From Sinorhizobium meliloti (GTDB lineage: Bacteria; Pseudomonadota; Alphaproteobacteria; Rhizobiales; Rhizobiaceae), in NCBI RefSeq assembly GCF_017876815.1, contig NZ_JAGIOS010000002.1, positions 720,001 through 752,000 on the forward strand: a stretch of DNA of 32,000 nt, given 5' to 3'. Each line of letters begins with the position of its first letter. The first letter of the stretch is position 1. This document shows, in pieces, positions 1,067-24,091 of the stretch. The position numbers and the translations under genes are program-made. The notes under the pieces are model-generated. The model was not told the origin of the DNA and did not search any database. It saw only the letters and a program-made list of their open reading frames with translations.

Positions 1067-2128
1067 ATGGCTGGCAATAACCGGAAAAACGAATTGCGGG
1101 CACTGTTTTCCGCGGGTGCGCCTGCCGCCGATCCGCAAACCCCCGCCGAAACGGCGTCGGGCGAGTTGACACCTGTCAACGCCAGGCCGGCCGCCCCGCT
1201 CGATGCGCCCCGTGCGGCCTCCGGCGCAGTGAAGGCCATGGGGCTCTCTCTCGGCAGCATCACACGCGAGGCCGAGGAAGCGCGGGTGCTCAGGGAAGCG
1301 TTGACCCAGGGTGAACGCGTCGTTTCGCTCGATCCGGCGCTGGTCGAAAGCTCCTTCGTCGAGGATCGGCTGACCGACGGCGAGATGGACGATGCGGATT
1401 TCCTCGCGCTCGTCGAGAGCATTCGCGAGAACGGCCAGCAATCGCCGATCCTCGTTCGCCCGCACCCGGAAAAGCAGGGCCATTACCAGACCGCCTACGG
1501 CCACCGGCGCCTGAAGGCGGTGCGCCGGCTCGAGCTCCAGGTAAAGGCGATCGTCCGGACGCTGACAGATGACGAGGTCGTGCTTGCGCAAGGCAAGGAA
1601 AACGCCGAGCGGCGCAACCTTTCCTTCATCGAACGTGCGCTTTTCGCCGCTGCGCTCGTAGCGCGCGGCTTCGACCGCAAGGTGATCGGCGATGCGCTTG
1701 CGGTGCAGAAGAGCGAACTTTCGCGCCTCCTGCAGGTGGCGGACGGTGTGCCGCACGAAGTCGCCCGCGCCATCGGCCCGGCGCCGAAGGCCGGGCGCGA
1801 GCGCTGGATGGCGATCGGGACGCTGCTTGAAAGGCAAGAAGCGCGCGCCCGAGCCCAAGACGAGATCGCTTCGCCACGCTTCCGCGCCGTCGATTCAGAC
1901 CAACGCTTTCAGCTCGTCTTCAATCGCCTGTCGCAAAGCGACAAGCCGGAACCGGAAAGGCCGGAGGAACTGAAGGACGCCGCAGGGCGGGTCTTCGCTC
2001 GGCTGAAGCGTGATGGGAAGGCGCCGAGGATCGAGTTCCTCCCGGGCACCCATCCGGCCGTCGTCCAGGAAGCCGTGTCGATGCTCGCCAACTGGCATGC
2101 AGCCTTCGTGGAGAATCAGAAGCCTTAG
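1067..2128 (+). CDS. repB: RepB-type (ParB family) partition/centromere-binding protein
   Basis: 353-aa ORF with its ATG 3 nt after the repA stop. It has a ParB N-domain core (ENGQQSPILVRP, YQTAYGHRRLKAV, GKENAERRNLSFIERA) and a typical RepB C-terminal half. The stop is TAG at 2126-2128. Confidence 0.9.
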   Translation: MAGNNRKNELRALFSAGAPAADPQTPAETASGELTPVNARPAAPLDAPRAASGAVKAMGLSLGSITREAEEARVLREALTQGERVVSLDPALVESSFVEDRLTDGEMDDADFLALVESIRENGQQSPILVRPHPEKQGHYQTAYGHRRLKAVRRLELQVKAIVRTLTDDEVVLAQGKENAERRNLSFIERALFAAALVARGFDRKVIGDALAVQKSELSRLLQVADGVPHEVARAIGPAPKAGRERWMAIGTLLERQEARARAQDEIASPRFRAVDSDQRFQLVFNRLSQSDKPEPERPEELKDAAGRVFARLKRDGKAPRIEFLPGTHPAVVQEAVSMLANWHAAFVENQKP

Positions 2129-2149
2129 AGCGACACAGCTCGGCCGCAA

Positions 2150-2984: not shown

Positions 2985-3680
2985 TCAAACGGTTAGATGC
3001 CGGCGCGCTTGCGGGGTGTCGAGCGTCTCCGGCGGGCCCTCGTGCACGAAAGCTCCACGGTCCATGATATAGACATGGTCGGCAAGCTCGCGGCAGAAAT
3101 CGAGATATTGCTCCACGAGCAGGATCGCCATACCGGTCGAATCCCGCAAATATTTGATCGCGCGGCCGATGTCCTTGATGATCGACGGCTGGATGCCCTC
3201 GGTCGGCTCGTCCAGCACCAGGATTTTCGGGCGTGTCACGAGAGCGCGAGCGATCGCGAGCTGCTGCTGCTGGCCGCCCGAAAGGTCGCCGCCCCTCCGG
3301 CCGAGCATCGTCTGAAGTACCGGAAACAGACTGAATATATCGTCTGGGATCGAGCGTTGAGCCCGCCTCAGCGGAGCGAAGCCGGTTTCGAGATTTTCCT
3401 TCACCGTCAGCAGGGGAAAGATCTCGCGGCCCTGGGGCACGTAGCCGACGCCCTGTTTGGCGCGCCGGAAGGGCGCCATGCCGTCGAGCGGCGCGCCGTT
3501 GAAAGAGATCGTGCCGCTCGTCACCGGATGCTGGCCGGCGACGGCCCTGAGCAGGCTCGACTTGCCAACGCCGTTGCGGCCGAGAACGCAGGTGATCTTG
3601 CCCATTTCCGCCTTGAACGAGACGTCGCGGAGCGCCTGGGCGGCGCCGTAATGCAGGCTGACGTTTTCGACGTTCAGCAT
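2985..3680 (-). CDS. urtE: urea ABC transporter ATP-binding protein UrtE
   Basis: 231 aa. Walker A GRNGVGKSS, signature LSGGQQQ, Walker B ILVLDEP. It is the last gene of a urtA-B-C-D-E ordered operon. The SD is GGGAGGAATTGAACCG-ATG. Confidence 0.92.
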   Translation of the reverse strand: MLNVENVSLHYGAAQALRDVSFKAEMGKITCVLGRNGVGKSSLLRAVAGQHPVTSGTISFNGAPLDGMAPFRRAKQGVGYVPQGREIFPLLTVKENLETGFAPLRRAQRSIPDDIFSLFPVLQTMLGRRGGDLSGGQQQQLAIARALVTRPKILVLDEPTEGIQPSIIKDIGRAIKYLRDSTGMAILLVEQYLDFCRELADHVYIMDRGAFVHEGPPETLDTPQARRHLTV

Positions 3681-3698
3681 CGGTTCAATTCCTCCCGC

Positions 3699-4451
3699 TC
3701 ATCGGCCGAGATAGTTCTCGATCACCTTCGGATCGTTGCTGACGAAATCGATCGACCCTTCCGCCAGCACCGAGCCTTCCGCAAGGCAGGTGACCTTGAC
3801 GCCGAGATCGCGGATGAAGCCCATGTCGTGCTCGACGACGACCACCGAGCGCGTCCTGGCGATTTCTTTCAGGAGGATCGCCGTTTCCGCCGTCTCCGCA
3901 TCGGTCATGCCGGCCACCGGCTCGTCCACGAGCAGGAGTTCCGGCTCCTGGGCGAGCAGCATGCCGATCTCCAGCCATTGCTTCTGGCCATGCGAGAGAT
4001 TGGCGGTGAGATCGTCGCGGCGCGCCGTGAGCCGCACCGTCGAAAGGATCTCCTCGATGCGGCTCTTGTCCTCTCTCGTCAGCCGATAGAACAGGGTCGC
4101 GAAGACGCCGCGGCTGCGGTTCAGCGCCAGCTCCAGATTGTCCCAGACCGTATGGTTCTCGAAGACGGTCGGCTTCTGGAACTTGCGGCCGATGCCGAGC
4201 TCGGCGATTGCCGCTTCGTCTTTCTTGGTGAGGTCGATGTCGCCCTTGAAGAAGACCTCGCCCTCGTCCGGCCGCGTCTTGCCGGTGATGATGTCCATCA
4301 TCGTCGTCTTGCCGGCGCCATTGGGGCCGATGATCGCGCGCAGTTCCCCCGGCTCTACGACGAAGGAGAGCGAGTTCAGCGCCTTGAAGCCATCGAAGGA
4401 GACGGAGACCCCATCGAGATAGAGCAGGTTCCTGGGTTTCTTTCCGGTCAT
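3699..4451 (-). CDS. urtD: urea ABC transporter ATP-binding protein UrtD
   Basis: The start was chosen at MTGKKPRNLLYLDGVSV (ATG at 4451), 6 nt after the urtC stop. It has Walker A GPNGAGKTT and LSHGQKQ. The upstream part of the 346-aa track ORF overlaps urtC and is Arg-rich junk. Confidence 0.9.
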   Translation of the reverse strand: MTGKKPRNLLYLDGVSVSFDGFKALNSLSFVVEPGELRAIIGPNGAGKTTMMDIITGKTRPDEGEVFFKGDIDLTKKDEAAIAELGIGRKFQKPTVFENHTVWDNLELALNRSRGVFATLFYRLTREDKSRIEEILSTVRLTARRDDLTANLSHGQKQWLEIGMLLAQEPELLLVDEPVAGMTDAETAETAILLKEIARTRSVVVVEHDMGFIRDLGVKVTCLAEGSVLAEGSIDFVSNDPKVIENYLGR

Positions 4452-4456
4452 GGCGA

Positions 4457-5632
4457 TCACTCCGCGGCCACCGTTTCGGCGTTCGCAAGGCTCGCCGCTT
4501 TTTCGCTCTCGCTTTCCTTCCGGGCCGCCGCGTGGGATGCGCGCCGGCTTGCGAGATAGCTCTGCGCCGTGCCGACCACGCCCTTCGGCAGGAAAAGCGT
4601 GACGAGGACGAAGAGCCCGCCGAGCGCAAAGAGCCAGAATTCGGGGAAGGCGGCGGTGAAGATGCTTTTTCCGCCGTTGACGAGGATCGCGCCGACGATC
4701 GGTCCGATCAGCGTGCCGCGCCCGCCGACAGCCGTCCATATGACCACCTCGATCGAATTGGCGGGGGCGAACTCGCCCGGATTGATGATGCCGACTTGCG
4801 GCACGTAGAGCGCGCCGGCGACGCCCGCCATCATTGCCGAGACCGTGAAGGCGAAGAGCTTCATGTGCTCGACGCGATAGCCGAGAAAGCGTGTGCGGCT
4901 TTCCGCGTCGCGCAGCGCCACCAGCACCTTGCCGAATTTCGAGCGGACGATGCCCGAGGTGACGACGAGCGAAACGGCAAGCGCCAGCGCGGAGGCTGCA
5001 AAGAGTGCCGCACGCGTTCCGTCGGCCTGGATGTTGAAGCCGAGGATGTCCTTGAAATCGGTGAGCCCGTTATTGCCGCCGAAGCCCATGTCGTTGCGGA
5101 AGAAGGCGAGCAGCAGCGCATAGGTCATCGCCTGGGTGATGATCGAGAGATAGACCCCGTTGACCCGCGAGCGGAAGGCGAACCAGCCGAAGACGAAGGC
5201 AAGCAGGCCCGGCACCAGCACCACCATCAGCGCTGCGAACCAGAACATGTCGAAGCCGTACCAGAACCAGGGCAGCTCCTTCCAGTTGAGAAAGACCATG
5301 AAGTCCGGCAGCAGCGGATTGCCGTAGGAGCCGCGTGCGCCGATCTGGCGCATCAGATACATGCCCATGGCATAGCCGCCGAGCGCGAAGAAGGCCGCAT
5401 GCCCCAGCGAGAGGATGCCGCAGAAACCCCAGACAAGATCGAGCGCCAGAGCCAAGAGCGCATAGGTCAGGTACTTGCCGAAGAGCGAGACCAGATAGGT
5501 CGGCACATGCAGCGGGTGTTCCGGCGCGGTCAGGAGGTTGAGCGCGGGAACGATGACGGCCAGCGCCAGCAGGATCGCGACAGCGACGACGATCGTCCGA
5601 TCCAGCGATTTGACGAGAAACGAGGTGATCAT
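4457..5632 (-). CDS. urtC: urea ABC transporter permease UrtC
   Basis: 391-aa polytopic LivM-like permease. Its start overlaps the urtB stop (ATGA). It has a roughly 35-aa hydrophilic C-terminal tail. Confidence 0.92.
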   Translation of the reverse strand: MITSFLVKSLDRTIVVAVAILLALAVIVPALNLLTAPEHPLHVPTYLVSLFGKYLTYALLALALDLVWGFCGILSLGHAAFFALGGYAMGMYLMRQIGARGSYGNPLLPDFMVFLNWKELPWFWYGFDMFWFAALMVVLVPGLLAFVFGWFAFRSRVNGVYLSIITQAMTYALLLAFFRNDMGFGGNNGLTDFKDILGFNIQADGTRAALFAASALALAVSLVVTSGIVRSKFGKVLVALRDAESRTRFLGYRVEHMKLFAFTVSAMMAGVAGALYVPQVGIINPGEFAPANSIEVVIWTAVGGRGTLIGPIVGAILVNGGKSIFTAAFPEFWLFALGGLFVLVTLFLPKGVVGTAQSYLASRRASHAAARKESESEKAASLANAETVAAE

Positions 5633-7242
5633 GCTTCCACCGCCCGGCCCTTGAGTGCGAAGAGCCCGCGCGGCCGCTTCTGGATGAAGAGGATGATCAG
5701 CACGAGCACGAGGATCTTGCCGAGCACGGCGCCGGCATAGGGCTCCAGGAACTTGTTGAGGATGCCGAGCGACAAGGCGCCGACAAGCGTGCCCCAGAGA
5801 TTGCCGACGCCGCCGAAGACCACGACCATGAAGCTGTCGATGATGTAGCCCTGCCCGAGGTTCGGCGAGACGTTGTCGATCTGCGAAAGCGCCACACCCG
5901 CAATGCCGGCGATGCCGGAGCCGAGCGCGAAGGTCAGCGCATCCACCCAGGGCGTGCGGATGCCCATGGAAGAGGCCATGCGCCGGTTCTGCGTTACCGC
6001 GCGCATCTGCAGGCCCATCGGCGTCTTCTTGAGCAGAAAGAGAAGTGCCGCAAACACCGCAAGCGCAAAGACGATGATCCAGAGACGGTTCCAGGTGATC
6101 GCCAGTCCGCCGAGCTCGAAGGCGCCGGACATCCAGGACGGATTGCCGACCTCACGGTTGGTGGGGCCGAAGATCGTCCGCACCGTCTGCTGGAGGATGA
6201 GCGATATGCCCCAGGTGGCAAGCAGCGTTTCGAGCGGGCGCCCGTAGAGAAAGCGGATGACGCCGCGTTCCAGTGCGAGGCCCACGGCGCCCGTGACAAG
6301 AAAGGCGAGCGGCAGCGCGATCGCCAAGGACCACTCGAAAAGATGAGGAAAGGAGGTGCGCACGACATCTTGAACGAGGAAGGTCGTATAGGCCCCGAGC
6401 ATCACCATCTCGCCATGCGCCATGTTGATGATGCCCATGACGCCGAAGGTGATGGCGAGACCGATCGCCGCCAAGAGCAGCACCGAGCCGAGCGACAGGC
6501 CGTACCATATGTTCTGGCCCGCATTCCAGAAGGCTTGCGCCTGTTCGATGCTGGCGAGCGCCGCCTCGATGTCCGGCTTCAGGCTTTCGTCGGCAGAGCC
6601 GAGCGCGGCAGAAAGGATCGGCAGCGCCTCGCGGCCGCCGTTTTCCTCCAGCAGCCGCACCGCCTCCTTCTTCTCCTCGACCGGCCGGTCGGAGAGAAGC
6701 AGCATCGTGGCGCGCGCCTGTTCGAGAACCGCACGAACGGCTCCATCCTTCTCGGCAGCCAGTGCATTCTCGATGACGCCGAGCGCGTCGGCATCGGGCG
6801 ATTGCAGCACCGACTGCGCGGCCCTGAGGCGCTGATTGCGATCGGGGCTGAGGAGCGTCAGGCTGCCGAGGGCGGTCCGCACGGCGCGCCGCACGCTGTT
6901 GTTCACCCTGATCTTCGAAAGTCCCGCCTTCGGTGCTTCGCCGGCGCTGTCGCCGGAGATCGGATCCGTAAGGGTCAGGTTCGAACCGTTCTCCTTCGTC
7001 CGCAAGACCTGGCCATCCGCCTTGCGCGCATAGAGCTCGCCTTCGCCGAGCGCCTCGAGGATGGCGACGACTTCGGGCTTTCCGGTCTTCGCCAGTGCCG
7101 CGATATGCTCGTCCATCTCGGACAGCTTCGCCTCGCCGAGCGCGTTCACCAGATCGCGCAGTCCCTCTTCCGCGCGAAGCCCCGGAGCCATCGCAACGAA
7201 AAGGAACAGGGCAGCCAGCACGGTTGGGATGATGCGGTACAT
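5629..7242 (-). CDS. urtB: urea ABC transporter permease UrtB with a long N-terminal secreted helical-repeat extension
   Basis: 537 aa. There is a signal-like N-terminus (MYRIIPTVLAALFLFVAMAPGLRA), then about 240 aa of Ala/Leu/Glu-rich helical repeats, then a LivH-like permease core. Confidence 0.9.
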   Translation of the reverse strand: MYRIIPTVLAALFLFVAMAPGLRAEEGLRDLVNALGEAKLSEMDEHIAALAKTGKPEVVAILEALGEGELYARKADGQVLRTKENGSNLTLTDPISGDSAGEAPKAGLSKIRVNNSVRRAVRTALGSLTLLSPDRNQRLRAAQSVLQSPDADALGVIENALAAEKDGAVRAVLEQARATMLLLSDRPVEEKKEAVRLLEENGGREALPILSAALGSADESLKPDIEAALASIEQAQAFWNAGQNIWYGLSLGSVLLLAAIGLAITFGVMGIINMAHGEMVMLGAYTTFLVQDVVRTSFPHLFEWSLAIALPLAFLVTGAVGLALERGVIRFLYGRPLETLLATWGISLILQQTVRTIFGPTNREVGNPSWMSGAFELGGLAITWNRLWIIVFALAVFAALLFLLKKTPMGLQMRAVTQNRRMASSMGIRTPWVDALTFALGSGIAGIAGVALSQIDNVSPNLGQGYIIDSFMVVVFGGVGNLWGTLVGALSLGILNKFLEPYAGAVLGKILVLVLIILFIQKRPRGLFALKGRAVEA

Positions 7243-7384: not shown

Positions 7385-8677
7385 TCAGGAACCCTTGCCG
7401 CCGCACTTGCCGGTGGCCACATTGAAGTTGCCGCAGGACATGGGCGCGCGCCAATCGGAGATCAGGTCCTTCGAGTCCGGCAGGTAGTCCGACCATTCGT
7501 CGCCGACGACGAGGCCGGGCGTTTCCCATACCGTTTCGAACTGGCCGTCGGACTGGATCTCGCCGATCAGCACGGGCTTGGTGATGTGGTGGTTCGGCAT
7601 CATCGTCGAATAGCCGCCCGAAAGGTTCGGTACCGAGACCCCGATCATGGCGTCGAGCACGGCATCGGTATCGGTGGTGCCAGCCTTCTCGACTGCCTTC
7701 AGCCACATGTTGAAGCCGATGTAATGGGCTTCCATCGGGTCGTTGGTGACCCGCTTGTCGTTCTTGGTATATGCCTGCCAGGTCTCGATGAACTCCGCAT
7801 TGGCCGGGTTGTCGACCGACTGGAAGTAGTTCCAGGCAGCGAGATGCCCGACGAGCGGCCCGGTATCGAGGCCGGCAAGTTCCTCCTCGCCGACCGAGAA
7901 GGCGACGACCGGGATGTCCTCGGCCTTGATGCCCTGGTTGGCAAGTTCCTTGTAGAACGGCACGTTGGCGTCGCCGTTGATGGTCGAGACGACCGCGGTC
8001 TTCTTGCCGGCCGAGCCGAACTTCTGGATGTCCGAGACGATCGTCTGCCAGTCGGAATGGCCGAAAGGCGTGTAATTGATCATGATGTCCTCGGGCGCGA
8101 CACCCTTGGAGATCAGGTAGGCCTCGAGGATCTTGTTGGTCGTGCGCGGATAGACGTAATCGGTGCCGGCGAGCACCCAGCGCTCGACTTCCTCGTTCTC
8201 CATCAGATAGTCGACGGCCGGGATGGCCTGCTGATTGGGAGCGGCCCCCGTATAGAAGACGTTGCGCTGGCTTTCCTCGCCCTCGTACTGGACCGGATAG
8301 AAGAGGATCGAATTCAGCTCCTCGAAGACCGGCAGCACGGTTTTGCGCGATACCGACGTCCAGCAGCCGAAGACGGCGGAAACCTTGTCGACGGAGACGA
8401 GCTCGCGCGCCTTTTCGGCAAAGAGCGGCCAGTCCGAGGCCGGGTCGACGACGACGGCTTCCAGCTTCTTGCCGAGCAGGCCGCCCTTCTTGTTCTGCTC
8501 CTCGATCAGCATGAGCATGGCGTCCTTGAGCGTCGTTTCGGAGATCGCCATGGTGCCGGAAAGCGAATGCAGGATGCCGACCTTGATCGTGTCGTCGGCC
8601 GCAAAGGCGCCGTTGAACGCCGTCGTCGAAAGGACGGCAGCTAGAAATGCGCCGGTGACGCGTGCCCTGATAGTCAT
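7385..8677 (-). CDS. urtA: urea ABC transporter substrate-binding protein UrtA
   Basis: 430 aa. It has a signal peptide (…AFNGAFAADD) and a LivK/amide-binding fold signature (IKVGILHSLSGTMAISE). It is the first gene of the urt operon. Confidence 0.93.
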   Translation of the reverse strand: MTIRARVTGAFLAAVLSTTAFNGAFAADDTIKVGILHSLSGTMAISETTLKDAMLMLIEEQNKKGGLLGKKLEAVVVDPASDWPLFAEKARELVSVDKVSAVFGCWTSVSRKTVLPVFEELNSILFYPVQYEGEESQRNVFYTGAAPNQQAIPAVDYLMENEEVERWVLAGTDYVYPRTTNKILEAYLISKGVAPEDIMINYTPFGHSDWQTIVSDIQKFGSAGKKTAVVSTINGDANVPFYKELANQGIKAEDIPVVAFSVGEEELAGLDTGPLVGHLAAWNYFQSVDNPANAEFIETWQAYTKNDKRVTNDPMEAHYIGFNMWLKAVEKAGTTDTDAVLDAMIGVSVPNLSGGYSTMMPNHHITKPVLIGEIQSDGQFETVWETPGLVVGDEWSDYLPDSKDLISDWRAPMSCGNFNVATGKCGGKGS

Positions 8678-8891
8678 CTGATTGAACCCCCTTGTTCTGA
8701 TCGCCGCAACGCAAGTGGCCGTTCTCCATGGCCGTTGCTCGGGGGATCATCAGGCAGCCGCGCTGCACTGCACATACGTCATTCTACGTAGGCGGCGGGG
8801 GGAAGAAGGAAGCTTGGGCTTACTGCCCGGAGTTTTCTGCCGAGGATCCAGGTCGCTACCGCGGCAGACGCGAGAGGAGCGGTACGGCTCC

Positions 8892-9341
8892 TCACAAATA
8901 GGCCGTCACCCGGGGTGGCCGATCCCATGCATCATGGCGCCCGTCCTCATAGACGATCGGGGCATTCGCCAGCTCCTCGTCGGTCGCGTCGTCGAGACAG
9001 GCGATATTCACCGCATGGAACGGTCCGCCCATGATCTCGAAATCGGCGCTGCCAAACGGGTGGACGCCGCAGTGCCTGCAGAACACGTGGCGGATCATGC
9101 GCTCGCCGAAGCGGTATTCCGCCAAGGCCTCCTCGCCGGAAAGCAGGGAGAAATCCTCGGGCGTGACGAACACCTTCCAGAATCGCGTCTTCAGGCAGGA
9201 GGAACAGTTGCAGCGGAAGGTCGTCGTCCACCACACGCCCGGCCGCGGCGCTTCGGATCGCTTTCCCTCCGGCGCAAGATCGAGATTTACGGAAAAACGC
9301 ACCGCGCCGCAATGGCAGCTCCCGTGATAGGTCTTCTTCAT
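8892..9341 (-). CDS. GFA-family (glutathione-dependent formaldehyde-activating-like) Cys-rich zinc protein
   Basis: The start MKKTYHGSCHCGAVRF (ATG at 9341, SD AGGAGG) overlaps the upstream gene's stop as ATGA. The CxC…CxxC…CxxC pattern is typical of the GFA/CENP-V fold. Confidence 0.85.
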   Translation of the reverse strand: MKKTYHGSCHCGAVRFSVNLDLAPEGKRSEAPRPGVWWTTTFRCNCSSCLKTRFWKVFVTPEDFSLLSGEEALAEYRFGERMIRHVFCRHCGVHPFGSADFEIMGGPFHAVNIACLDDATDEELANAPIVYEDGRHDAWDRPPRVTAYL

Positions 9342-9802
9342 TGCATTTCCTCCTTCCGGGCAGCGACATAGGAAACCAGCCGGTCCATGCACTCGCTCCA
9401 TCCTTCCGCATGCGAATCGCGGCTCTCGGCGCTCGTGAACGGCGCCTGGTGGAAGGTGAGACGCGTGCCGCCCGCCACATCATCGAGGGTGACCGTGATC
9501 AGCGTGTCGATGGAGCCCTCCTCTTCCCAGGCGAAGCTGAGGACGATGCGGCTGGGGGCCACGATCTCGCGATAGATGCCGTGCGCCCAGTAGTCCTGGC
9601 CCTCCGGCGAGCGGATGCAGCCGCGCCAGGCGCCGCCTTCACGGAAATCGGTGGTGATCGCGGGCACCGTGAAGCCCTTCGGACCCCACCAGCGTGCCAG
9701 GTGTTCGGGTGTCGTCCAGACCTTGAAGACGAGGTTGGCGGGCGCGTCGAAGACGCGCGTGATGGTAAGCGCGTTCTCTTCCTTCAGAGACGGGGCATTC
9801 AT
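9338..9802 (-). CDS. SRPBCC-superfamily protein, AHSA1 (activator of Hsp90 ATPase homolog 1-like) family
   Basis: 154 aa. It has the typical ITRVFDAPxxLVFKVWTxPEHLxxWWGP N-terminus and the usual partnership with an upstream ArsR regulator. Confidence 0.85.
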   Translation of the reverse strand: MNAPSLKEENALTITRVFDAPANLVFKVWTTPEHLARWWGPKGFTVPAITTDFREGGAWRGCIRSPEGQDYWAHGIYREIVAPSRIVLSFAWEEEGSIDTLITVTLDDVAGGTRLTFHQAPFTSAESRDSHAEGWSECMDRLVSYVAARKEEMQ

Positions 9803-9834
9803 GATCTTCTCCCTTGCGGTCGGGCGAACCCGGT

Positions 9835-10176
9835 TCAGTCTTGATCCGATTTCTCGTTGCGCTGCAGTTCATGAAGATAGCTGTCGAGCCGGTCGAAACT
9901 GCCTTCCCAGAAATGGCGGTAGCGTTCGATCCAGTCGGCGATTTCCTTCAACGGCGCCGCCTCCAGCCGGCAGGGCCGCCATTGGGCGTTACGGCCCCGG
10001 GATATCAGCCCCGCGCGTTCCAATACCTTCAGATGTTTGGAGACCGCCGGCAGACTCATCTCGAATGGAGCTGCAAGTTCGTTCACCGTCGCCTCGCCGG
10101 CGGCAAGGCGCGCAACGATAGCACGGCGGGTGGGGTCGGCCAGTGCCGACAGGGTGCTGCTGAGCTGATCCATCAA
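9835..10176 (-). CDS. ArsR/SmtB-family winged-helix transcriptional regulator
   Basis: It has LADPTRRAIVARL and an HTH region (VNELAAPFEMSLPAVSKHLKVLERAGLI). The track start is TTG at 10176; an in-frame ATG follows at 10173. Confidence 0.88.
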   Translation of the reverse strand: MMDQLSSTLSALADPTRRAIVARLAAGEATVNELAAPFEMSLPAVSKHLKVLERAGLISRGRNAQWRPCRLEAAPLKEIADWIERYRHFWEGSFDRLDSYLHELQRNEKSDQD

Positions 10177-10178
10177 TG

Positions 10179-10196
10179 ATTAACCTACTGGTTAAT
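10179..10196. promoter_or_regulatory. candidate ArsR operator: perfect dyad ATTAACC-TACT-GGTTAAT
   Basis: The 7-bp arms pair perfectly. The dyad lies 3-6 nt upstream of the arsR-like start codon in an AT-rich stretch (TTAATTAAC). Confidence 0.55.
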
Positions 10197-10479
10197 TAAC
10201 TTGATGGTTTATTGCAGCAGCGTGGCGTTCTGTCAAGAGCTGAAATCTGCAATGGACGGGTGCCGCGCCATTGCCCATTCACTTGGTCGGTCTCAAGGGA
10301 CCGCAGGGCAAATCCGCTTCAAGAGGGAGAACATTCGATACAAAACGATCAAAACTGATCAAGCGGCCCTCGCGGAGCGTCGACGTTTTCCGCAATGCAG
10401 CAATTTCCCGGGCCGCTCGTCCGTGTTACGACATGAGCAGCTGGCGCATTCGGCCGGCATTGCGAGATGACGAGGGACC

Positions 10480-13400
10480 ATGGCGGCACGCCAGCGCATC
10501 ATTCCCGTTCGACGAGAATATAACCGCTGGGTCGCCAACCAGACGCTCGAAGACTATGCGCTGCGCTTCACCGCCAAGAGCGCGCGGCGCTTTTCCTCCG
10601 CGCGCATTTCGCAGACGGCGATCGGCGCCATCTCCTTCCTGGCGCTGGAAGCCATCGGCGGCGCGATTACCATGTCCTACGGCACGACGAACGCTATCGT
10701 CGCGATCCTCGTCGCGAGCCTGATGATCCTTATCGTCGGCCTGCCGATCAGCCGCTATGCCATCCGTCACGGAGTCGACATCGACCTTCTCACGCGCGGC
10801 GCGAGCTTCGGCTATATCGGCTCGACGACCACCTCGCTCATCTATGCGAGCTTCACCTTCATCCTCTTCGCGATCGAAGCCTCGATCATGTCTGGGGCGC
10901 TGGAGCTCGCGCTCGGCATACCGCTCTGGATCGGCTACATCATCAGCGCCGTCATGGTGATCCCGCTGGTCACCCATGGCGTGAAGCTGATCAGCCGGTT
11001 CCAGCTCGTCACGCAGCCCTTCTGGATCGTCCTGAACATTCTTCCCTTCGCCTTCATCGCGTTTGCGGACTGGGAGAAGGTCGGCCTGTGGCTCGCTTAT
11101 GCGGGCATCCATCACACATCGGGCCCCCCCGGCACGCTCGCGCCGTTCCATCTCGTCGAATTCGGCGCTGCCTCGGCGGTCATCTTCGCGCTGATGGCGC
11201 AGATCGGCGAACAGGTGGACTTCCTGCGCTTCCTGCCGCCTGACGGCGAGCGCAAGCTCCGGCACCGCATCGCCGTCTTTCTTGCCGGCTCCGGCTGGGT
11301 GATCGTCGGCGCGCCGAAGCTGCTTGCCGGCTCCTTTCTCGTCGTGCTGGCGCTCAGCACCGGCGTTCCATCGACCAGGGCCGCCGACCCGGCGCAGATG
11401 TATTACACCGCCTTCGGCTACATCTTCCCGTCGGACACGGCCGCGCTCCTGCTGATGGCCGCTTTCGTCGTCGTCTCGCAGCTCAAAATCAACGTGATGA
11501 ACGCCTATGCGGGCTCGCTCGCCTGGTCGAACTTCTTCTCGCGGCTCACCCACAGCCATCCGGGCCGCGTCATCTGGCTGGTGTTCAACGTGGCGATCGC
11601 GCTCCTGCTGATGGAGCTCGGCATCTATCGTCTGCTGGAGGAGACGCTCGGCATCTTTTCGATCGTCGCCATGGCCTGGCTCTCAACGATCTCCGCCGAT
11701 CTCTTCGTCAACAAGCCGCTCGGGCTCGCCCCGCCCGGAATCGAGTTCAAGCGCGCCCATCTCTACGACATCAACCCTGTCGGCCTCGGCACCATGGGCG
11801 TGTCGACGCTCTTCGCCCTCGTCGCGCATTTCGGCGCGGCGGGCGAAATCGCCGCCTCGCTCGCCCCCTATATCGCGCTCGTCACGGCCTTTGTCGTCTC
11901 GCCGCTGATCGCCTGGTGGACGGAAGGGAAATTCTATCTCGCCCGCAAGCCGCGCAAGAGCTGGCTCACCGAAAGCGAGATCACCTGCTCGATCTGCGAG
12001 CATCCGTTCGAACCGGAGGACATGGCCTGGTGTCCGGCCTATGCGGCGCCGATCTGCTCGCTCTGCTGCTCTCTCGACAGCCGCTGCCACGACATGTGCA
12101 AGCCGAAGGCGCGGCTGAACACGCAGGTCGCGACCGTGGCCAAGGTGGTGCTGCCCGAAACGGTCGTCGCAAAGCTTGCGACAAGGCTCGGCCGTTACGC
12201 GATTTCAGCGGTGATCTCGATTACCGGCATCGGTGTCATCCTGGCGATGATCGCCCACCAGACGACGGCCGCCTCTCCCGAGACCGCCGATGTCGTCGAG
12301 CGGACCATCGCCATCGTCTTCTTCGTCTTCGCCATCCTTGCCGGCGTCGTGTCCTGGTTCTACGTGCTTGCCCATGACAGCCGGGTCGTTGCGGAAGAGG
12401 AATCCTCCCGGCAGAACACGGCTCTCCTGAAGGAGATCGCCGCCCACAAGAAGACCGACGCGGCGCTGCAGGACGCGAAAGAAAGGGCGGAGTCGGCCAA
12501 CCGCGCGAAGAGCCGCTATGTCGTGGGGCTCAGCCACGAACTGCGCACGCCGCTCAATGCGGTGCTCGGCTACGCCCAGATCCTCGAGCGCGACGAGACG
12601 ATACCGCCGCCGCGGCAGGGCGCGATCAAGGCGATCAGGCGCAGCGCCGACCATCTCTCCGGACTGATCGACGGCCTCCTCGACATCTCCAAGATCGAAG
12701 CCGGCAAGCTGCAGGTCTATTCCAACGAGATCAACATTCAGGACTTCTTGGATCAGATCGTCGACATGTTCCGCCCGCAGGCGCAGGCAAAGGGCATCGC
12801 CTTCGAGCACAACCGCGCAGCCTCGCTGCCGCAATATGTGCGGACCGACGACAAGCGCCTGCGGCAGATCCTCGTCAACCTGCTCTCCAATGCCCTGAAG
12901 TTCACGGAACGGGGGCATATCCGCTTCGACGTCGCCTATCGCAGCCAGGTTGCAAGTTTCACCATCGAGGACAGCGGCCGCGGCATCAGCGAGAAGGACC
13001 TGCCCCGGATCTTCGAGCCCTTCCAGCGCGGCGAGGCGGAATATCGCATGCCGGGCCTCGGCCTCGGCCTGACCATCACGCGCCTGCTCACCCAGACGCT
13101 CGGCGGCGAAATTTCCGTCACCAGCGAGAAGGACAAGGGCACGGGCTTCAAGGTCCGGCTGATGCTCTCTGCGGTCGACCGGCCCGCCGCGCTCAAAGAC
13201 CCGGTGCAGAAGATCAAGTCCTATCACGGGCCACGCCGGACGATCATCGTGGTCGACGACAATGCGGATCACCGCAACCTGATGCGCGAGCTGCTGACGC
13301 CGCTCGATTTCACCGTTCTTGCGGCGGCGAGCGGGGCGGCCTGCCTGGCGCTCGCCGAACATACGGAACCGGACCTGTTCCTGATCGACATCTCCATGCC

Positions 13401-13860
13401 CGGCATGAGCGGCTGGGATCTGGTGACGCGGCTGAGGGAAGCCGGCCAGAGCGCGCCGGCGATCATGCTTTCGGCCAATATCGGCGATGGCTCGGCCGCC
13501 GGCGCCATCGGCCACAACGATGCCCTTGCCAAGCCCTTCGGCCTGCGCCAGCTCACCGACAAGCTCGCGATCCACCTGAAACTCGAATGGATCTACGACG
13601 ACGGCCCGAAGGAAACGTCCGGCACCGACAAGACCACTGCGGTAGCGAGCCCCGGTCATCATCATTTGAAAGAATTGATCGAGCTCGGCGAAATCGGCTA
13701 CGTGAGGGGCATCGAAGCAAAATTGACGGAGATCGCCCTGAACCCCGACAACCGAGCCTTCGCCGAGGCGGCGCGCGCCTATGTCGGGGCATTCGACCTC
13801 GCGGGCTATGACGCCTTTCTCAAACGCCTGCTCGCCGGGGAGGCGAATGCCCGTGCCTGA
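10480..13860 (+). CDS. hybrid sensor histidine kinase with an N-terminal 12-TM permease-like (NCS1-like) domain, Cys8 cluster, HisKA, HATPase_c, REC and a C-terminal helical tail
   Basis: 1126 aa. Residues 1-485 contain 12 hydrophobic helices, with RGASFGYIGS and QLKINVMNAYAGSLAWSNFF motifs resembling purine-cytosine/hydantoin permeases. The Cys cluster spans residues 503-540, followed by two more TM helices. Kinase features are the H-box SHELRTPLN (His686), N-box LVNLLSNALKFT, G1 DSGRGI and G2 GLGLGL. The REC domain has LFLIDISMPGMSG (Asp970). Confidence 0.9.
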   Translation: MAARQRIIPVRREYNRWVANQTLEDYALRFTAKSARRFSSARISQTAIGAISFLALEAIGGAITMSYGTTNAIVAILVASLMILIVGLPISRYAIRHGVDIDLLTRGASFGYIGSTTTSLIYASFTFILFAIEASIMSGALELALGIPLWIGYIISAVMVIPLVTHGVKLISRFQLVTQPFWIVLNILPFAFIAFADWEKVGLWLAYAGIHHTSGPPGTLAPFHLVEFGAASAVIFALMAQIGEQVDFLRFLPPDGERKLRHRIAVFLAGSGWVIVGAPKLLAGSFLVVLALSTGVPSTRAADPAQMYYTAFGYIFPSDTAALLLMAAFVVVSQLKINVMNAYAGSLAWSNFFSRLTHSHPGRVIWLVFNVAIALLLMELGIYRLLEETLGIFSIVAMAWLSTISADLFVNKPLGLAPPGIEFKRAHLYDINPVGLGTMGVSTLFALVAHFGAAGEIAASLAPYIALVTAFVVSPLIAWWTEGKFYLARKPRKSWLTESEITCSICEHPFEPEDMAWCPAYAAPICSLCCSLDSRCHDMCKPKARLNTQVATVAKVVLPETVVAKLATRLGRYAISAVISITGIGVILAMIAHQTTAASPETADVVERTIAIVFFVFAILAGVVSWFYVLAHDSRVVAEEESSRQNTALLKEIAAHKKTDAALQDAKERAESANRAKSRYVVGLSHELRTPLNAVLGYAQILERDETIPPPRQGAIKAIRRSADHLSGLIDGLLDISKIEAGKLQVYSNEINIQDFLDQIVDMFRPQAQAKGIAFEHNRAASLPQYVRTDDKRLRQILVNLLSNALKFTERGHIRFDVAYRSQVASFTIEDSGRGISEKDLPRIFEPFQRGEAEYRMPGLGLGLTITRLLTQTLGGEISVTSEKDKGTGFKVRLMLSAVDRPAALKDPVQKIKSYHGPRRTIIVVDDNADHRNLMRELLTPLDFTVLAAASGAACLALAEHTEPDLFLIDISMPGMSGWDLVTRLREAGQSAPAIMLSANIGDGSAAGAIGHNDALAKPFGLRQLTDKLAIHLKLEWIYDDGPKETSGTDKTTAVASPGHHHLKELIELGEIGYVRGIEAKLTEIALNPDNRAFAEAARAYVGAFDLAGYDAFLKRLLAGEANARA

Positions 13861-14776
13861 GGCAGCGAACGCGCGCGACATCGTACTCCTCGTCGACGAT
13901 TCGCCGGAGGCGCTCGGCTTCCTGACCGAAGCGCTGGAACAGTCCGGCTTTTCCGTATTGATCGCGACCTCCGGCAACGCGGCGCTCAACATAGCCGATC
14001 GCATAACGCCGGACATCATCCTGCTCGATGCGGTCATGCCCGGCATGGACGGCTTCGACACCTGCACCCGGCTGAAGGCGAATGCTTCCGTCGCCCAGGT
14101 GCCCGTGGTCTTCATGACCGGCCTGACCGAGACGGAGCATGTGGTGCGGGCGCTCGAAGCCGGCGGCGTCGATTACCTGACCAAGCCGATCAATATCGAC
14201 GAGTTGCGCGCCCGCATCCGCGTCCATCTTTCCAATGCGCGCTCCGCCCAGAGCGCCCGCGTCGCACTGGACGCGGCGGGGCGGCATCTGCTGGCGGTGC
14301 GAGGCGATGGAACGGTTCGCTGGTCGACCCCGCAGGCGACCCGCCTCGTCAACGCGGCCACCGGCAGCGACGACGGTCTTGCCTTCGTCGCCGGGCGCAT
14401 TGCCGAGTGGATGCGGGAGCGGGAAACCAGCCCTGGCGAAAGGCAAGGGACTTTCACCCTGCAGCGCGCCAGCCAGACGGGCCTGCAGATCTCCTATCTC
14501 GGCGCAATCGGCGCCAATGAATACCTATTCCGGCTGACCGCCGAGAACGGCATGAGCGACGACGAAACGCTGCGCCAGCACTTCCGGCTCACCCAGCGGG
14601 AGTCCGAGGTGCTGCTCTGGATCGCCAAGGGAAAATCCAACCGCGACATCGGCGAGATCCTGGGTTTGAGCTCGCGCACCGTCACCAAGCATCTCGAACA
14701 GATCTATGTGAAGCTCGGCGTCGAAAACCGGGCCTCGGCGGCAGTGAAGGCGACGCAGGTGCTGCACGGGATCTGA
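13847..14776 (+). CDS. LuxR/FixJ-family response regulator with an extra central PAS-like domain (REC / about 105 aa / HTH)
   Basis: The ATG at 13847 overlaps the kinase stop by 14 nt. The REC domain has DD at 17-18, Asp61 (ILLDAVMPGMDG) and Lys113 (TKP). The LuxR HTH is LTQRESEVLLWIAKGKSNRDIGEILGLSSRTVTKHLEQIY. At 309 aa it is about 100 aa longer than NarL-type regulators. Confidence 0.9.
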   Translation: MPVPEAANARDIVLLVDDSPEALGFLTEALEQSGFSVLIATSGNAALNIADRITPDIILLDAVMPGMDGFDTCTRLKANASVAQVPVVFMTGLTETEHVVRALEAGGVDYLTKPINIDELRARIRVHLSNARSAQSARVALDAAGRHLLAVRGDGTVRWSTPQATRLVNAATGSDDGLAFVAGRIAEWMRERETSPGERQGTFTLQRASQTGLQISYLGAIGANEYLFRLTAENGMSDDETLRQHFRLTQRESEVLLWIAKGKSNRDIGEILGLSSRTVTKHLEQIYVKLGVENRASAAVKATQVLHGI

Positions 14777-14888: not shown

Positions 14889-16214
14889 TTATTCGGCGGG
14901 CTGGACGACCGCCGGGATGGCCTCGACGGACGCCTCGCCGCCGAGAGCTGCGGAAAGCTGCGCCTGATCGAGCTCGCCTTCCCACTTCGCCACCACGATC
15001 GTCGCAACCGCGTTGCCGACGAAATTGGTCAGGGCGCGGCATTCCGACATGAAGCGGTCGATGCCGAGGATCAGCGCCATGCCGGCGACCGGCACGGAGG
15101 GAACGACCGAGAGCGTTGCGGCAAGCGTGATGAAGCCGGCGCCGGTAATGCCGGCCGCACCCTTCGAGCTCAGCATTGCGACGAGGAGCAGCAGGATCTG
15201 GTCGCCGTATGAGAGCGGCGTATCGGTCGCCTGGGCGATGAACAGGGCCGCAAGCGTCATGTAGATATTGGTGCCGTCCAGGTTGAAGGAATAGCCGGTC
15301 GGAATGACGAGACCGACGACCGAGCGCTTGCAGCCGGCCTTCTCCATCTTGTTCATGAGGCCCGGAAGAGCCGCCTCCGAAGAGGACGTCCCGAGCACCA
15401 GCAGCAGCTCCTCCTTGATGTAGCGGATGAGCGAGAGGATCGAGAAGCCGTTATAGCGTGCGACCGCGCCGAGAACGATGAAGACGAAGAGAAACGACGT
15501 CAGATAGAAGGTGCCGATCAGCATGGCGAGATTGGCGATCGAGGCGATACCGTACTTGCCGATGGTGAAGGCCATGGCGCCGAAGGCGCCGATCGGGGCG
15601 GCCTTCATCAGGATCGCAACGAGCCGGAAGATCGGCAGCGTCAGCGCCTGCAGGAAATCGACCACGGGCTCGGCTTTCTTGCCGACGATCGCCAGCGAAA
15701 TACCGAAGAGCACCGAGATGAACAGGACCTGCAGGATGTCGCCCTCGGCGAAGGCGCCGACGAGCGTCGTCGGGATGATGTTCATCAGGAAGCCGGTGAT
15801 CGACTGCTCATGCGCCTTCTCGGCATAGGTCGCGACCGCCTTGGCGTCCAGCGTGGCCGGATCGATATGCATGCCCGCGCCTGGCTGCACCACGTTTGCG
15901 ACGACGAGACCCACGACAAGCGCGAGGGTGGAGAAGGCGAGAAAGTAGATCATCGCCTTGCCGGCGACGCGGCCGACCTTGGCGAGATCGGTCATGCCGG
16001 CAATCCCGGTCGCGACCGTCAGGAAGATCACCGGCGCGATGATCATCTTCACGAGCCTGATGAAGGCGTCGCCGAGCGGTTTGAGCTCCGTGCCGATATC
16101 AGGATAGAAATGCCCGAGCAGGATGCCCGCGGCGATCGCAGCCAGCACCTGAACATAGAGATGGCGGTAAAGGGGTGTCTTGCCGCGGACCTCCGCGGAA
16201 TGTTCGATGATCAT
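14889..16214 (-). CDS. dctA: C4-dicarboxylate transport protein DctA (DAACS family)
   Basis: 441 aa starting at [24 protein letters not shown] (ATG at 16214, SD GGAGGATATC). It shows strong recognisable identity to rhizobial DctA ([42 protein letters not shown]). It is the C-terminal part of the spurious 1508-aa track ORF. Confidence 0.97.
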
Positions 16215-16311
16215 GATATCCTCCACGTGGCAGGCCCAGTCCGGCAACATGCCGGGCCTCCCGGGCCGCTTTCCGAAGATCGACAGCAGTGGCTGCCTTG
16301 TGGAGCTTGTC

Positions 16312-16327
16312 AGCAACATGCGTGCCA
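16312..16327 (-). promoter_or_regulatory. sigma-54 (-24/-12) promoter of dctA
   Basis: The minus strand reads CTGGCACGCATGTTGCTG, a perfect TGGCAC-N5-TTGCT. The predicted transcription start near 16301 gives a leader of about 87 nt. Confidence 0.88.
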
Positions 16328-16401
16328 GTTTGCCGCGGAAGGCCGATGCGATTGAATCCATGGGATTCTTGCGGGCGGTGCTCGCTTGCCGTTCGTGGAT
16401 A

Positions 16402-16419
16402 TGTGCGGATTTCCGCACA
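16402..16419. promoter_or_regulatory. DctD upstream activating sequence, strong site (TGTGCGGA-TT-TCCGCACA)
   Basis: Perfect 8-bp arms. The centre is about 109 bp upstream of the predicted dctA start, consistent with the tandem DctD sites described for rhizobial dctA promoters. Confidence 0.8.
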
Positions 16420-16434
16420 GAAGCGCTGGCGTTC

Positions 16435-16452
16435 TGGGCGAAAACATGCACA
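16435..16452. promoter_or_regulatory. probable second, degenerate DctD site (TGGGCGAAAACATGCACA)
   Basis: It matches the strong site at 11 of 18 positions (TG-GCG…GCACA retained). The centre is 33 bp (three helical turns) from the strong site, at about -142. It overlaps the dctB ATG (16446). Confidence 0.45.
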
Positions 16453-18311
16453 ATGTTCGCATGGTCAAACTTCCTGCAGAAGCGACCGATCCGCATGCGC
16501 TTCGCAGCCGGGCCCGACGGTCCTGGCTCGTTTTCGCGGCAGTCGCGCTGGTCCTTCTGGCAGCCGGCCTTCTTCTTGCGCGAGACTACGGCCGGTCGCA
16601 GGCGCTCGCCGGCCTTGCCGGTCAGAGCCGGATCGACGCCAGCCTGAAAGCCTCGCTTCTTCGAGCAGTCGTGGAACGGCAGCGCGCCCTGCCGCTTGTC
16701 CTCGCCGACGACGCAGCCATTCGTGGCGCATTGCTTTCGCCGGACATGCAGTCGCTCGACCGCATCAACCGCAAGCTCGAGGCCCTGGCGACAAGCGCCG
16801 AAGCCGCGGTCATCTATCTGATCGACCGGAGCGGCGTCGCCGTCGCGGCCAGCAACTGGCAGGAGCCGACGAGCTTCGTCGGCAACGACTATGCCTTCCG
16901 CGATTATTTCCGGCTCGCCGTCCGCGACGGCATGGCCGAACATTTCGCCATGGGCACGGTCAGCAAGCGGCCCGGGCTTTATATTTCCCGGCGCGTCGAC
17001 GGGCCCGGCGGTCCGCTGGGGGTGATCGTCGCCAAGCTCGAATTCGACGGGGTCGAGGCGGATTGGCAGGCCTCCGGCAAGCCGGCCTATGTCACCGACC
17101 GGCGCGGCATCGTCCTCATCACCAGCCTGCCCTCCTGGCGCTTCATGACGACGAAGCCGATCGCCGAAGACCGGCTGGCGCCCATTCGCGAAAGCCTGCA
17201 GTTCGGCGATGCGCCGCTGCTGCCGCTGCCCTTCCGGAAGATCGAAGCGCGGCCCGATGGCTCCTCCACGCTCGACGCCCTGCTGCCGGGCGACTCCACC
17301 GCAGCCTTCCTGCGCGTGGAAACCATGGTGCCGTCGACGAACTGGCGGCTCGAGCAGCTGTCGCCGCTGAAGGCGCCGCTTGCAGCGGGTGCGCGGGAGG
17401 CGCAGCTCCTCACCCTTGCCGCGCTCGTACCGCTTCTCGCGCTTGCCGCATTGCTCCTGCGCCGTCGCCAGGTAGTCGCCATGCGCAGCGCCGAGGAGCG
17501 GCTGGCCCGCAATGCGCTTGAGGCGAGCGTCGAGGAGCGGACGCGCGACCTGCGCATGGCGCGCGACCGTCTCGAAACCGAGATCGCCGACCACCGGCAG
17601 ACCACCGAGAAGCTCCAGGCCGTGCAGCAGGACCTCGTCCAGGCGAATCGGCTGGCGATCCTCGGCCAGGTCGCCGCCGGGGTTGCCCATGAGATCAACC
17701 AGCCGGTCGCCACCATCCGCGCCTATGCGGATAATGCCCGCACGTTTCTCCACCGCGGCCAGACCGTCACCGCCGCCGAGAACATGGAAAGCATAGCCGA
17801 GCTTACCGAGCGCGTCGGCGCCATCACCGACGAGCTGCGCCGCTTCGCCCGCAAGGGCCATTTCGCAGCCGGGCCGACCGCGATGAAGGAGGTCGTCGAG
17901 GGTGCGCTCATGCTGCTCCGCAGCCGGTTTGCCGGGCGGATGGACGCAATCCGCATCGATCTGCCGCCCGATGGTCTCCAGGCGCTCGGCAACCGCATCC
18001 GGCTGGAGCAGGTCTTGATCAACCTCCTGCAGAATGCGCTGGAAGCGATCGGCGACAGCGAGAACGGCGCGATCCAGGTGCGCTGCAAGGCGGCGCCCGG
18101 CGGCATCGCGCTGACCGTCGCCGACAACGGCCCGGGGATTGCGGCCGATGTCCGCGAAGAGCTGTTCACGCCGTTCAACACCTCGAAGGAAGACGGGCTG
18201 GGCCTCGGTCTCGCGATCTCCAAGGAGATCGTCTCCGACTATGGCGGGACGATCGAGGTCGAGAGCGGCCCCTCCGGAACGACATTTACCGTGAACCTCA
18301 AGAAGGCCTGA
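16446..18311 (+). CDS. dctB: C4-dicarboxylate sensor histidine kinase DctB
   Basis: 621 aa from ATG 16446 ([10 protein letters not shown]…). It has two TM helices flanking a periplasmic sensor domain, the H-box [11 protein letters not shown], and an HATPase domain ([15 protein letters not shown]). The TTG-extended track ORF would swallow the DctD sites. Confidence 0.93.
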
Positions 18312-22042: not shown

Positions 22043-22050
22043 TGCGCCAT

Positions 22051-24091
<2,041 letters not shown>

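Follow-up and report, generated by a model that had tools for sequence, protein, structure and literature searches.

A window of 32,000 nucleotides from Sinorhizobium meliloti (contig NZ_JAGIOS010000002.1, positions 720,001 to 752,000) carries the overlapping genes of a hybrid histidine kinase and a response regulator, named SMb20609 and SMb20610, respectively, in the nomenclature of strain 1021. In this study, we propose that SMb20609 and SMb20610 form a two-component system devoted to urea and short-chain amides, controlling the urea transport (urt) genes plus urease (ure), formamidase (fmd) or amidase (ami) genes, and we put the probability of this reading at roughly 0.6. Urea or amide sensing was deduced because the conserved partner of the pair is the urt operon plus ure, fmd and ami genes. 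The kinase begins with a domain of 12 transmembrane (TM) helices whose predicted fold is that of the NCS1 carriers, and a conserved dyad upstream of urtA is the predicted operator of SMb20610.

The 4.3-kb region of the pair is 100% identical to S. meliloti megaplasmid pSymB records, and the kinase is identical to HB772_33115 of CP050561, in which the two genes are labeled 'response regulator' (the kinase) and 'response regulator transcription factor' (the regulator), and nothing more. The gene order, also from CP050561, is urtEDCBA (minus strand), a GFA/SRPBCC/ArsR-type cassette (minus), the kinase and regulator (plus), dctA (minus), and dctB with dctD (plus). The observation is not a matter of chance, as more than 3500 homologues exist. 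The first-pass annotation, which was made from the DNA letters of this region, had called the system a candidate uncharacterised one, and this still holds, with no characterised orthologue found and SMb20609 listed as 'functionally uncharacterized' in a 2025 proteomics paper (PMC12542648). Mentions of the pair in the literature were restricted to passing listings and to PhaR control of its promoter, and no functional study was found in the full-text literature, a coverage that leaves out most subscription journals, so that an older report is possible.

Conserved association with urea and amide genes

A search with the 12-TM domain returned 1568 clusters at 50% identity (E ≤ 1e-3), mostly fusions of 1000–1500 aa, and at least 597 relatives were confirmed in a scan of one genome per species. 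Locus counts were made on the 80 best loci (52–94% identity), which come from Alpha-, Beta- and Gammaproteobacteria and span Rhizobiaceae, Devosia, Roseibium, Bradyrhizobium, Hyphomicrobium, Cellvibrio, Alcanivorax, Zhongshania and Burkholderiales. The regulator directly follows the kinase in 77–80 of the 80 loci, the gene of a UrtA-type substrate-binding protein lies divergently upstream of the kinase in 79, and urtB–E are present in about 70. Two types of loci were distinguished. The Sm type (46 loci) neighbors urtABCDE, with a UrtA 75–98% identical to that of the window, and urease genes (UreD, Urease_beta, Urease_gamma) come after urtE in at least 14 of these loci. The UrtA of the Bj type (29 loci) is just ~39% identical, still above the TIGR03407 cut-off, and the transporter genes are followed by those of the formamidase FmdA (23 loci), the zinc-ribbon protein FmdB (23) and the aliphatic amidase AmiE (11), all three confirmed by NCBIfam, and by AmiB-like AAA genes (3). 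Selengut and co-workers (2010) had argued that the second Urt-like transporter of Bradyrhizobium is one for amides, not urea (PMC3098086).

The same company was kept by more distant relatives. In one of 46% identity (locus L095), the pair lies between a urt operon and ureDABC, and in one of 35% identity (locus L091) it is flanked by a Urt-like ATP-binding cassette (ABC) transporter operon and a CN_hydrolase amidase gene. In a Dechloromonas genome paper, a kinase of 1131 aa and a receiver protein of 308 aa are listed, uncommented, beside UrtA and urease. Within the 12-TM family, 13 positions cleanly separate the urease-linked from the amidase-linked clade, and two of them (129 L/F and 340 M/T, the latter tentatively aligned with CodB T279) fall at tentatively predicted pocket positions, which is what a change of ligand would predict.

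Some relatives of ~550 aa have no kinase and stop just past the Cys cluster that also follows the 12-TM domain of SMb20609. The two that could be placed (558 aa; L086 8001-11227 and L084 1079-3927) each have an amidase-signature gene (PF01425) directly after them, and the L086 cluster adds FmdA_AmdA, CN_hydrolase, a second amidase and a LysR regulator. Because these kinase-less relatives adjoin amidase genes, the permease-like module itself is linked to amide metabolism, the kinase aside, and the stand-alone proteins are candidate amide permeases of a family that has no Pfam model.

A dyad at the urtA promoter provided a further line of evidence. With up to 2 mismatches allowed, the strict form, TACGTC-N4-GACGTA, was present in the 250 nt before urtA in 58 of 75 loci, its median distance from the gene being 96 nt, against a background of 13 matches in 1.5 Mb of flanking sequence. 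The relaxed consensus TACGYM-N4-KRCGTA was matched exactly in 49 of the 75 loci and with at most one mismatch in 72 (median distance 95–96 nt), while 0.0003 exact and 0.002 one-mismatch occurrences are expected per 250 nt. The dyad stays with urtA where insertions of 1–8 kb part urtA from the kinase. The two exact 'background' dyads, both of them extra copies, were located at L070 2705-2720 (Alcanivorax), ~100 nt before the probable start of fmdA, and at L017 9899-9914 (Ectorhizobium), ~100 nt upstream of the displaced kinase gene. In L091, the co-varying form TACGCA-N4-TGCGTA stands before both the binding-protein gene (~3700) and the CN_hydrolase amidase gene (~8130). An apparent absence of the dyad from Bradyrhizobium was ruled out, as the variant TACGCA-N4-YGCGTA, missed by the strict form, is present ~70 nt from the ATG. 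NarL-family regulators bind inverted heptamers in a 7-2-7 arrangement, and the 7-2-7 geometry of the dyad accordingly fits a GerE-type dimer. We infer that the dyad is the operator of SMb20610.

Upstream of the S. meliloti kinase itself no dyad was detected, and only the published PhaR box is present there. A sigma-70 promoter scan of positions 8600-10500 gave no sites, and a sigma-54-like element upstream of urtA had, judged by eye, the wrong spacing. Some Bj-type loci have two tandem dyads 22 nt apart. At L048 ~9900-9990, as in other Bradyrhizobium loci, two TGCACCGCAA repeats enclose the dyad, and TGGTAC-N5-TTGC lies beyond it toward the kinase. This arrangement resembles a sigma-54 promoter with NtrC-like sites and suggests that the sensor genes of the Bradyrhizobium clade come under general nitrogen control.

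Domain structure of the kinase and the regulator

Kyte-Doolittle hydropathy and an AlphaFold2 (AF2) model agreed on 12 hydrophobic helices between kinase residues ~46 and 481, and two further membrane helices (570–596 and 602–634 by hydropathy, joined by a few residues) correspond to AF2 helices 569–598 and 600–659, the second of which is continuous from TM14 to HisKA. Both methods left only minimal periplasmic loops. The two motifs in which the first-pass annotation had seen a resemblance to purine-cytosine/hydantoin permeases, LLTRGASFGYIGS at residues 103–115 and QLKINVMNAYAGSLAWSNFF at residues 334–353, are near-invariant across homologues, and the 12 helices and two-helix anchor with a short loop that it had read from the letters were likewise seen in hydropathy and in the model.

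The proposed kinship with NCS1 transporters was borne out by the fold and not by sequence profiles. A profile search against PF02133 and the rest of Pfam gave no match to residues 1–500 even at E ≤ 10, no Pfam match was obtained for residues 1–660 or for the last 95 residues, and six distant relatives, down to 35% identity, matched nothing in Pfam or NCBIfam either. Searches of all PDB sequences with phmmer and with a 30-sequence family profile returned noise only, with Mhp1 and CodB not retrieved. The AF2 model of residues 1–660, built on 60 homologues, had a mean predicted local distance difference test (pLDDT) score of 79.8 and a predicted template modelling (pTM) score of 0.81. In a structural comparison, this model placed three Mhp1 conformers and both CodB chains as the top five Foldseek matches in the PDB (E 1.9e-9 to 1.8e-7), namely Mhp1 2jln (E 1.9e-9), CodB 7qoa (E 4.3e-9, TM-score 0.74–0.75 on target), then 4d1a and 2x79. 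SLC5 (SGLT, SiaT), Nramp, APC and other LeuT-fold carriers ranked lower, at E 1e-6 or weaker.

An hhalign comparison with the CodB family alignment yielded one colinear 356-column alignment of kinase residues 24–435 with CodB 5–365 (P 3.5e-4), at a probability of just 37%. The motifs it paired were EDYALRFTAKSARRW with NNYSQGPVPQSARKG on the CodB side, LLTRGAGFGYIGS with LLAR-FSFGVKGS, VDFLRF with ADFVRF, and KINVxNAYAGSLAWSN with NIWTTNDNALYASGLGFAN. The probability fell to 22% against a single CodB, and no alignment was obtained with AllW. Residue pairings from the 37%-probability alignment (T126-Q105, L129-W108, L238-F204, K336-N275 and N341-N280) are tentative and serve as leads only. Conservation within the protein is highest in the 12-TM domain, whose helices contain many invariant polar residues (T126, E133, Q241, E244, Q245, Q334, K336, N338 and N341). 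These residues tentatively sit in the helices that form the LeuT-fold site. The JGI and NCBI pipelines name relatives 'purine-cytosine permease-like'. On the evidence of the model, we regard the domain as NCS1-like at the level of fold only, as it fails membership at the Pfam level.

The cytoplasmic cluster of eight cysteines noted in the first pass (503, 506, 518, 526, 529, 530, 536 and 540, each at least 90% conserved) has the pattern C-x2-C ... C ... C-x2-C-C ... C ... C and was modeled with two short strands at a pLDDT of ~78. It is a probable Zn-binding site in a small beta/alpha module. The kinase-less relatives P0187, P0189 and P0194 have the same cluster, which is therefore a feature of the permease family and not of the signalling part. 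No Pfam match of any family was obtained for the linker (486–660), with the presence of a STAC model among the profiles unchecked.

The order of HisKA, HATPase_c and REC followed by a tail of ~95 aa was as first read, the domains being recognised by Pfam and the tail matching none of its models. His686, Asp926, Asp927 and Asp970 are invariant in 79 of 79 sequences, and the tail has a consensus conserved among homologues, EL..LGEIGYVRGIEAKL.E...F...R..V..FDL.GY. A histidine phosphotransfer (Hpt) domain in the tail was ruled out, with no PF01627 match, no PDB profile match, His1062 present in just 52 of 79 sequences, and an hhalign probability of 0.3% against the true Hpt of relative P0181. Since the tail is not an Hpt domain, SMb20609 is a hybrid and not an unorthodox kinase.

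SMb20610 starts at ATG 13847 and overlaps the kinase gene by 14 nt, as the first-pass annotation had it and as CP050561 is annotated. It consists of REC (residues 13–125, PF00072, E 3e-29), a middle domain of 120 aa and a GerE helix-turn-helix (HTH; residues 248–302, PF00196, E 2e-18), in keeping with the REC and LuxR parts already proposed. No Pfam or PDB profile matched the middle domain. Its AF2 topology (residues ~137–240, aN-b1-b2-a-a-b3-b4-b5, pLDDT 71.5) is PAS-like, and Foldseek gave weak matches to TyrR, FixL, heme-PAS and PYP PAS domains (E 5e-4 to 1e-2) with roadblock folds intermixed. The PAS-like assignment, which had also been made in the first pass, is thus reasonable on the model, not proven.

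Proposed signal path, alternatives and the S. meliloti locus

Considering the above results, we have drawn up a plausible path for the signal. The NCS1-like LeuT-fold domain would bind, and perhaps carry, urea in a polar pocket, with formamide or acetamide taking its place in the Bj-type clade. A rocking-bundle movement would then pass through the 8-Cys, probably zinc-containing, module and the TM13–TM14 hairpin to the signalling helix and the HisKA/HATPase core. On the most economical scheme, which is also assumed for CrbS/CrbR, phosphate would go directly from His686 to the receiver of SMb20610, and since the C-terminal tail is not an Hpt domain, the receiver of the kinase (Asp970) would most likely serve as an internal sink or gate. 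A dimer of phosphorylated SMb20610 on TACGYM-N4-KRCGTA, ~95 nt upstream of urtA, would switch on the high-affinity UrtABCDE transporter and, in other genomes, the urease or formamidase/amidase genes behind urt. In S. meliloti, a three-gene cassette now separates urtA from the kinase as an insertion, and PhaR controls the kinase promoter. Of this scheme, the domain content, the fold, the synteny and the conserved dyad are results of the analysis, and the ligand, the direction of control and the phosphate route are inferences.

Several points weigh against the urea/amide reading. No paper found in the full-text literature ties the pair to urea or amides, and synteny tells what is regulated, not what is sensed, so a related compound or some state of the cell might be the actual signal. 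The family is non-uniform: relative P0181 (1459 aa, L093 3706-8085), which has PAS_4 and a genuine Hpt domain, lies away from urt genes, next to genes of a ParA-like ATPase and a GATase/Peptidase_C26 protein, and at least one sub-branch has other wiring and perhaps another ligand. Control of the kinase promoter by PhaR hints at carbon-storage inputs (PMC12542648). As SMb20609 is a hybrid kinase without an Hpt domain, the route by which phosphate would reach the regulator is hypothetical, and the kinship with NCS1 carriers is invisible to Pfam, NCBIfam and PDB profile searches, so that statements on pocket residues are tentative.

The signal might instead be a classical NCS1 substrate that yields urea, such as allantoin or another ureide, a hydantoin or a pyrimidine, with the same urt/ure/fmd regulon and with urea uptake and hydrolysis downstream of it. 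The closest structures are indeed hydantoin and cytosine carriers, the pipelines' 'purine-cytosine permease-like' label points the same way, and rhizobia meet ureides in legume tissues. However, genes for allantoinase, hydantoinase or pyrimidine catabolism are absent from the conserved neighbors, formamidase, aliphatic amidase or amidase-signature genes are what adjoins the amidase-linked clade and the kinase-less relatives, and the positions of the aromatic stacking residues of CodB are Leu here in the tentative alignment. We therefore consider such a signal unlikely. In view of the urt/ure/fmd/ami genes conserved around the pair, urea or short-chain amides are more likely ligands than the nucleobases, allantoin, hydantoins and thiamine precursors put forward in the first-pass annotation.

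Slightly less probable again is that the permease-like domain is a mere anchor or scaffold and that the signal enters elsewhere, be it at the 8-Cys cluster (as redox state or as a metal, for instance Ni for urease), at the regulator's PAS-like domain, or by contact with the ligand-loaded Urt transporter. The conservation of the eight cysteines, the extra PAS-like domain and the occurrence of co-sensing with ABC transporters in other systems would fit such an arrangement, but an anchor is not expected to be the most conserved domain with many invariant polar residues inside its helices, and the periplasmic loops are minimal. Moreover, the Cys cluster is also found in kinase-less relatives beside amidase-signature enzymes, which are metal-free, and looks structural.

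The last alternative, an NCS1-type transceptor for nucleobase-like ligands whose regulon is the ArsR/AHSA1/GFA operon and/or dctA, rests on adjacency in this window and is very improbable. Among the 80 loci, ArsR with AHSA1 was found in 3, those of S. meliloti, S. medicae and S. psoraleae, and dctA also in 3, all of them Sinorhizobium loci; a GFA homologue, wherever placed, was found in 5. None of these genes has a dyad nearby, the single dyad of the window being that of the urtA promoter, and dctA has its own adjacent regulators, dctB/dctD. This lack of conservation removes them as the targets suggested in the first pass.

Outside the Sinorhizobium loci with the cassette, the urtA–kinase spacer measures 150–500 nt. 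As the cassette is confined to Sinorhizobium, it is best seen as an insertion into an ancestral divergent urtA–kinase promoter region. Different insertions of 1–8 kb were observed at the same place in other genomes. SMb20609 is among the direct targets of the polyhydroxybutyrate (PHB)-binding repressor PhaR, as documented by electrophoretic mobility shift assay (EMSA) and reporter data in the 2025 proteomics paper (PMC12542648). Under such control, the sensor would be abundant at times of carbon storage, in which nitrogen is the limiting nutrient. The positions of all these features are collected in Table 1.

Table 1. Position, strand and basis of the features described, numbered from the first letter of the window
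Feature	Position	Strand	Basis
urtB (5629-7242), urtC (4457-5632), urtD (3699-4451), urtE (2985-3680)	2985..7242	-	Annotation of the identical record, open reading frames
urtA, urea ABC transporter substrate-binding protein	7385..8677	-	TIGR03407, 569 bits against a cutoff of 492.75; annotation
Predicted SMb20610 operator, dyad TACGTCATTCTACGTA, 98 nt upstream of the urtA ATG	8775..8790		Sole match in the 32-kb window
ArsR / SRPBCC (AHSA1) / GFA cassette	8892..10176	-	Lineage-specific insertion between urtA and the kinase
PhaR (AniA) binding motif GTTTTCCGCAATGCAGCAATT, 75-95 nt upstream of the kinase ATG	10385..10405	+	Exact copy of the published motif
SMb20609, 1126-aa hybrid histidine kinase	10480..13860	+	Open reading frame, Pfam domains, identity to CP050561 HB772_33115
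Residues 1-485, divergent NCS1-like (LeuT-fold) 12-TM permease-like domain	10480..11934	+	AF2/Foldseek, hhalign, hydropathy
Residues 503-540, cytoplasmic 8-Cys cluster	11986..12099	+	Cys positions, conservation, AF2
Residues 570-634, TM13-TM14 hairpin running into a long signalling helix	12187..12381	+	Hydropathy, AF2
HisKA (677-742, phospho-acceptor His686) and HATPase_c (790-896)	12508..13167	+	Pfam, E 3e-16 and 6e-26
Receiver of the kinase (922-1029; Asp926, Asp927, Asp970)	13243..13566	+	Pfam, E 1.3e-21
Residues 1058-1126, conserved C-terminal tail, non-Hpt	13651..13857	+	Conservation
SMb20610, 309-aa response regulator	13847..14776	+	Pfam, AF2

Elsewhere in the window, dctA (minus strand) is convergent with the regulator gene and is followed by dctB and dctD (14889-18311), the classical C4-dicarboxylate system. 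A thiamine pyrophosphate (TPP) riboswitch (22046-22157, plus strand; Rfam RF00059, 73.8 bits) precedes a thiC-thiO-thiS-thiG-thiE operon. By coordinate transfer, the window starts inside repA, followed by repB of pSymB (~1-2130, plus strand), just upstream of the urt operon, and the locus thus adjoins the partition genes of the megaplasmid.

Significance and comparison with known systems

In soils, in fertilised fields and in the ocean, urea ranks among the major nitrogen sources, and its uptake by bacteria is usually ascribed only to general nitrogen control (NtrC, NtcA, GlnR, AmtR). If the urea/amide reading is true, a substrate-specific two-component urea sensor would add a missing regulatory layer, and the induction of urt, urease and formamidase/amidase clusters that have neither AmiC/AmiR nor UreR would be explained. 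It would also extend transceptor kinases past the SLC5 family, define a previously undescribed carrier-associated Cys-cluster module, and provide an operator/regulator pair usable in urea or formamide biosensors and in formamide-based selection in biotechnology. Clusters of amiE/fmdA/fmdB/urtABCDE without amiC/amiR have been noted, with the regulator unassigned, in a paper that also summarised AmiC/AmiR (PMC13209695). The fusion was already visible in database names; new here are its association with urt/ure/fmd genes, the predicted operator, and the stand-alone relatives beside genes of amide metabolism.

A wider claim, for which we see slightly under even odds, is that the pair may represent the first dedicated bacterial membrane sensor for urea and short-chain amides, in which a carrier of NCS1 ancestry has been turned into a receptor or transceptor for organic nitrogen compounds of the smallest size and joined through a Zn-Cys module to a hybrid kinase, whose LuxR partner contains a PAS domain and has a defined operator. 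Such a sensor would serve hundreds of soil, rhizosphere and marine Proteobacteria, and PhaR would connect it with carbon storage in S. meliloti.

Two systems that might appear related were set aside. HK05741 of Pseudomonas resinovorans, near urea-transport genes, is probably RetS and not a member of this family, judging by the gene order in P. aeruginosa, and the unrelated induction by urea in Serratia depends on CpxR.

Mhp1 (hydantoin) and CodB (cytosine) are the best structural matches of the kinase domain, with a TM-score of up to 0.75 on target, and the tentative alignment with CodB pairs, in colinear order, an N-terminal ..SAR.. motif, LLxR-xFGxxGS after TM2, DFxRF in TM6 and an Asn-rich TM8. 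In contrast to both carriers, the kinase domain has no PF02133 match, is ~15–20% identical to them, and has the Cys cluster attached at its C-terminal side and, here, a kinase. In the tentative alignment, it further differs from CodB in having aliphatic residues (Leu) where the aromatic stacking residues sit and a near-invariant Lys336 at a sodium-site residue.

With its REC and GerE HTH, SMb20610 resembles the regulators of the NarL/FixJ family, and so does its predicted operator of two inverted heptamers starting with TAC, 2 bp apart and 16 bp in total. It differs from them in the PAS-like domain of ~110 aa between REC and HTH and in the half-site, TACGTC or TACGCA.

The SLC5/STAC kinase systems CbrA/CbrB, CrbS(MxtR)/CrbR and RpuS/RpuR also have an N-terminal LeuT-fold carrier fused to a histidine kinase. 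Among them, CrbS is of the hybrid kind, with HisKA, HATPase and REC but no Hpt, has a LuxR-type partner and controls genes of solute uptake or catabolism (PMC5715377, PMC9100948, PMC7096432), and SMb20609 is likewise a hybrid HisKA-HATPase-REC kinase without Hpt and with a LuxR-type partner. However, unlike CbrA and CrbS, the carrier of SMb20609 is NCS1-like, has no Pfam SSF match and finds SLC5 structures lower in Foldseek. Its linker consists of the 8-Cys module and two extra TM helices, its regulator has the added PAS-like domain, and its predicted solute is urea or an amide, whereas the SLC5/STAC kinases respond to histidine, acetate or pyruvate.

In function, the predicted induction of amidase or urease genes by amides or urea has its counterpart in AmiC/AmiR of Pseudomonas aeruginosa and UreR of Proteus and Providencia. 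AmiC is a cytoplasmic sensor resembling periplasmic binding proteins that sequesters an RNA-binding antiterminator, and UreR is a one-component activator of the AraC type. Neither of them is a membrane two-component system and neither has a carrier domain, in contrast to SMb20609/SMb20610, in which both are combined.

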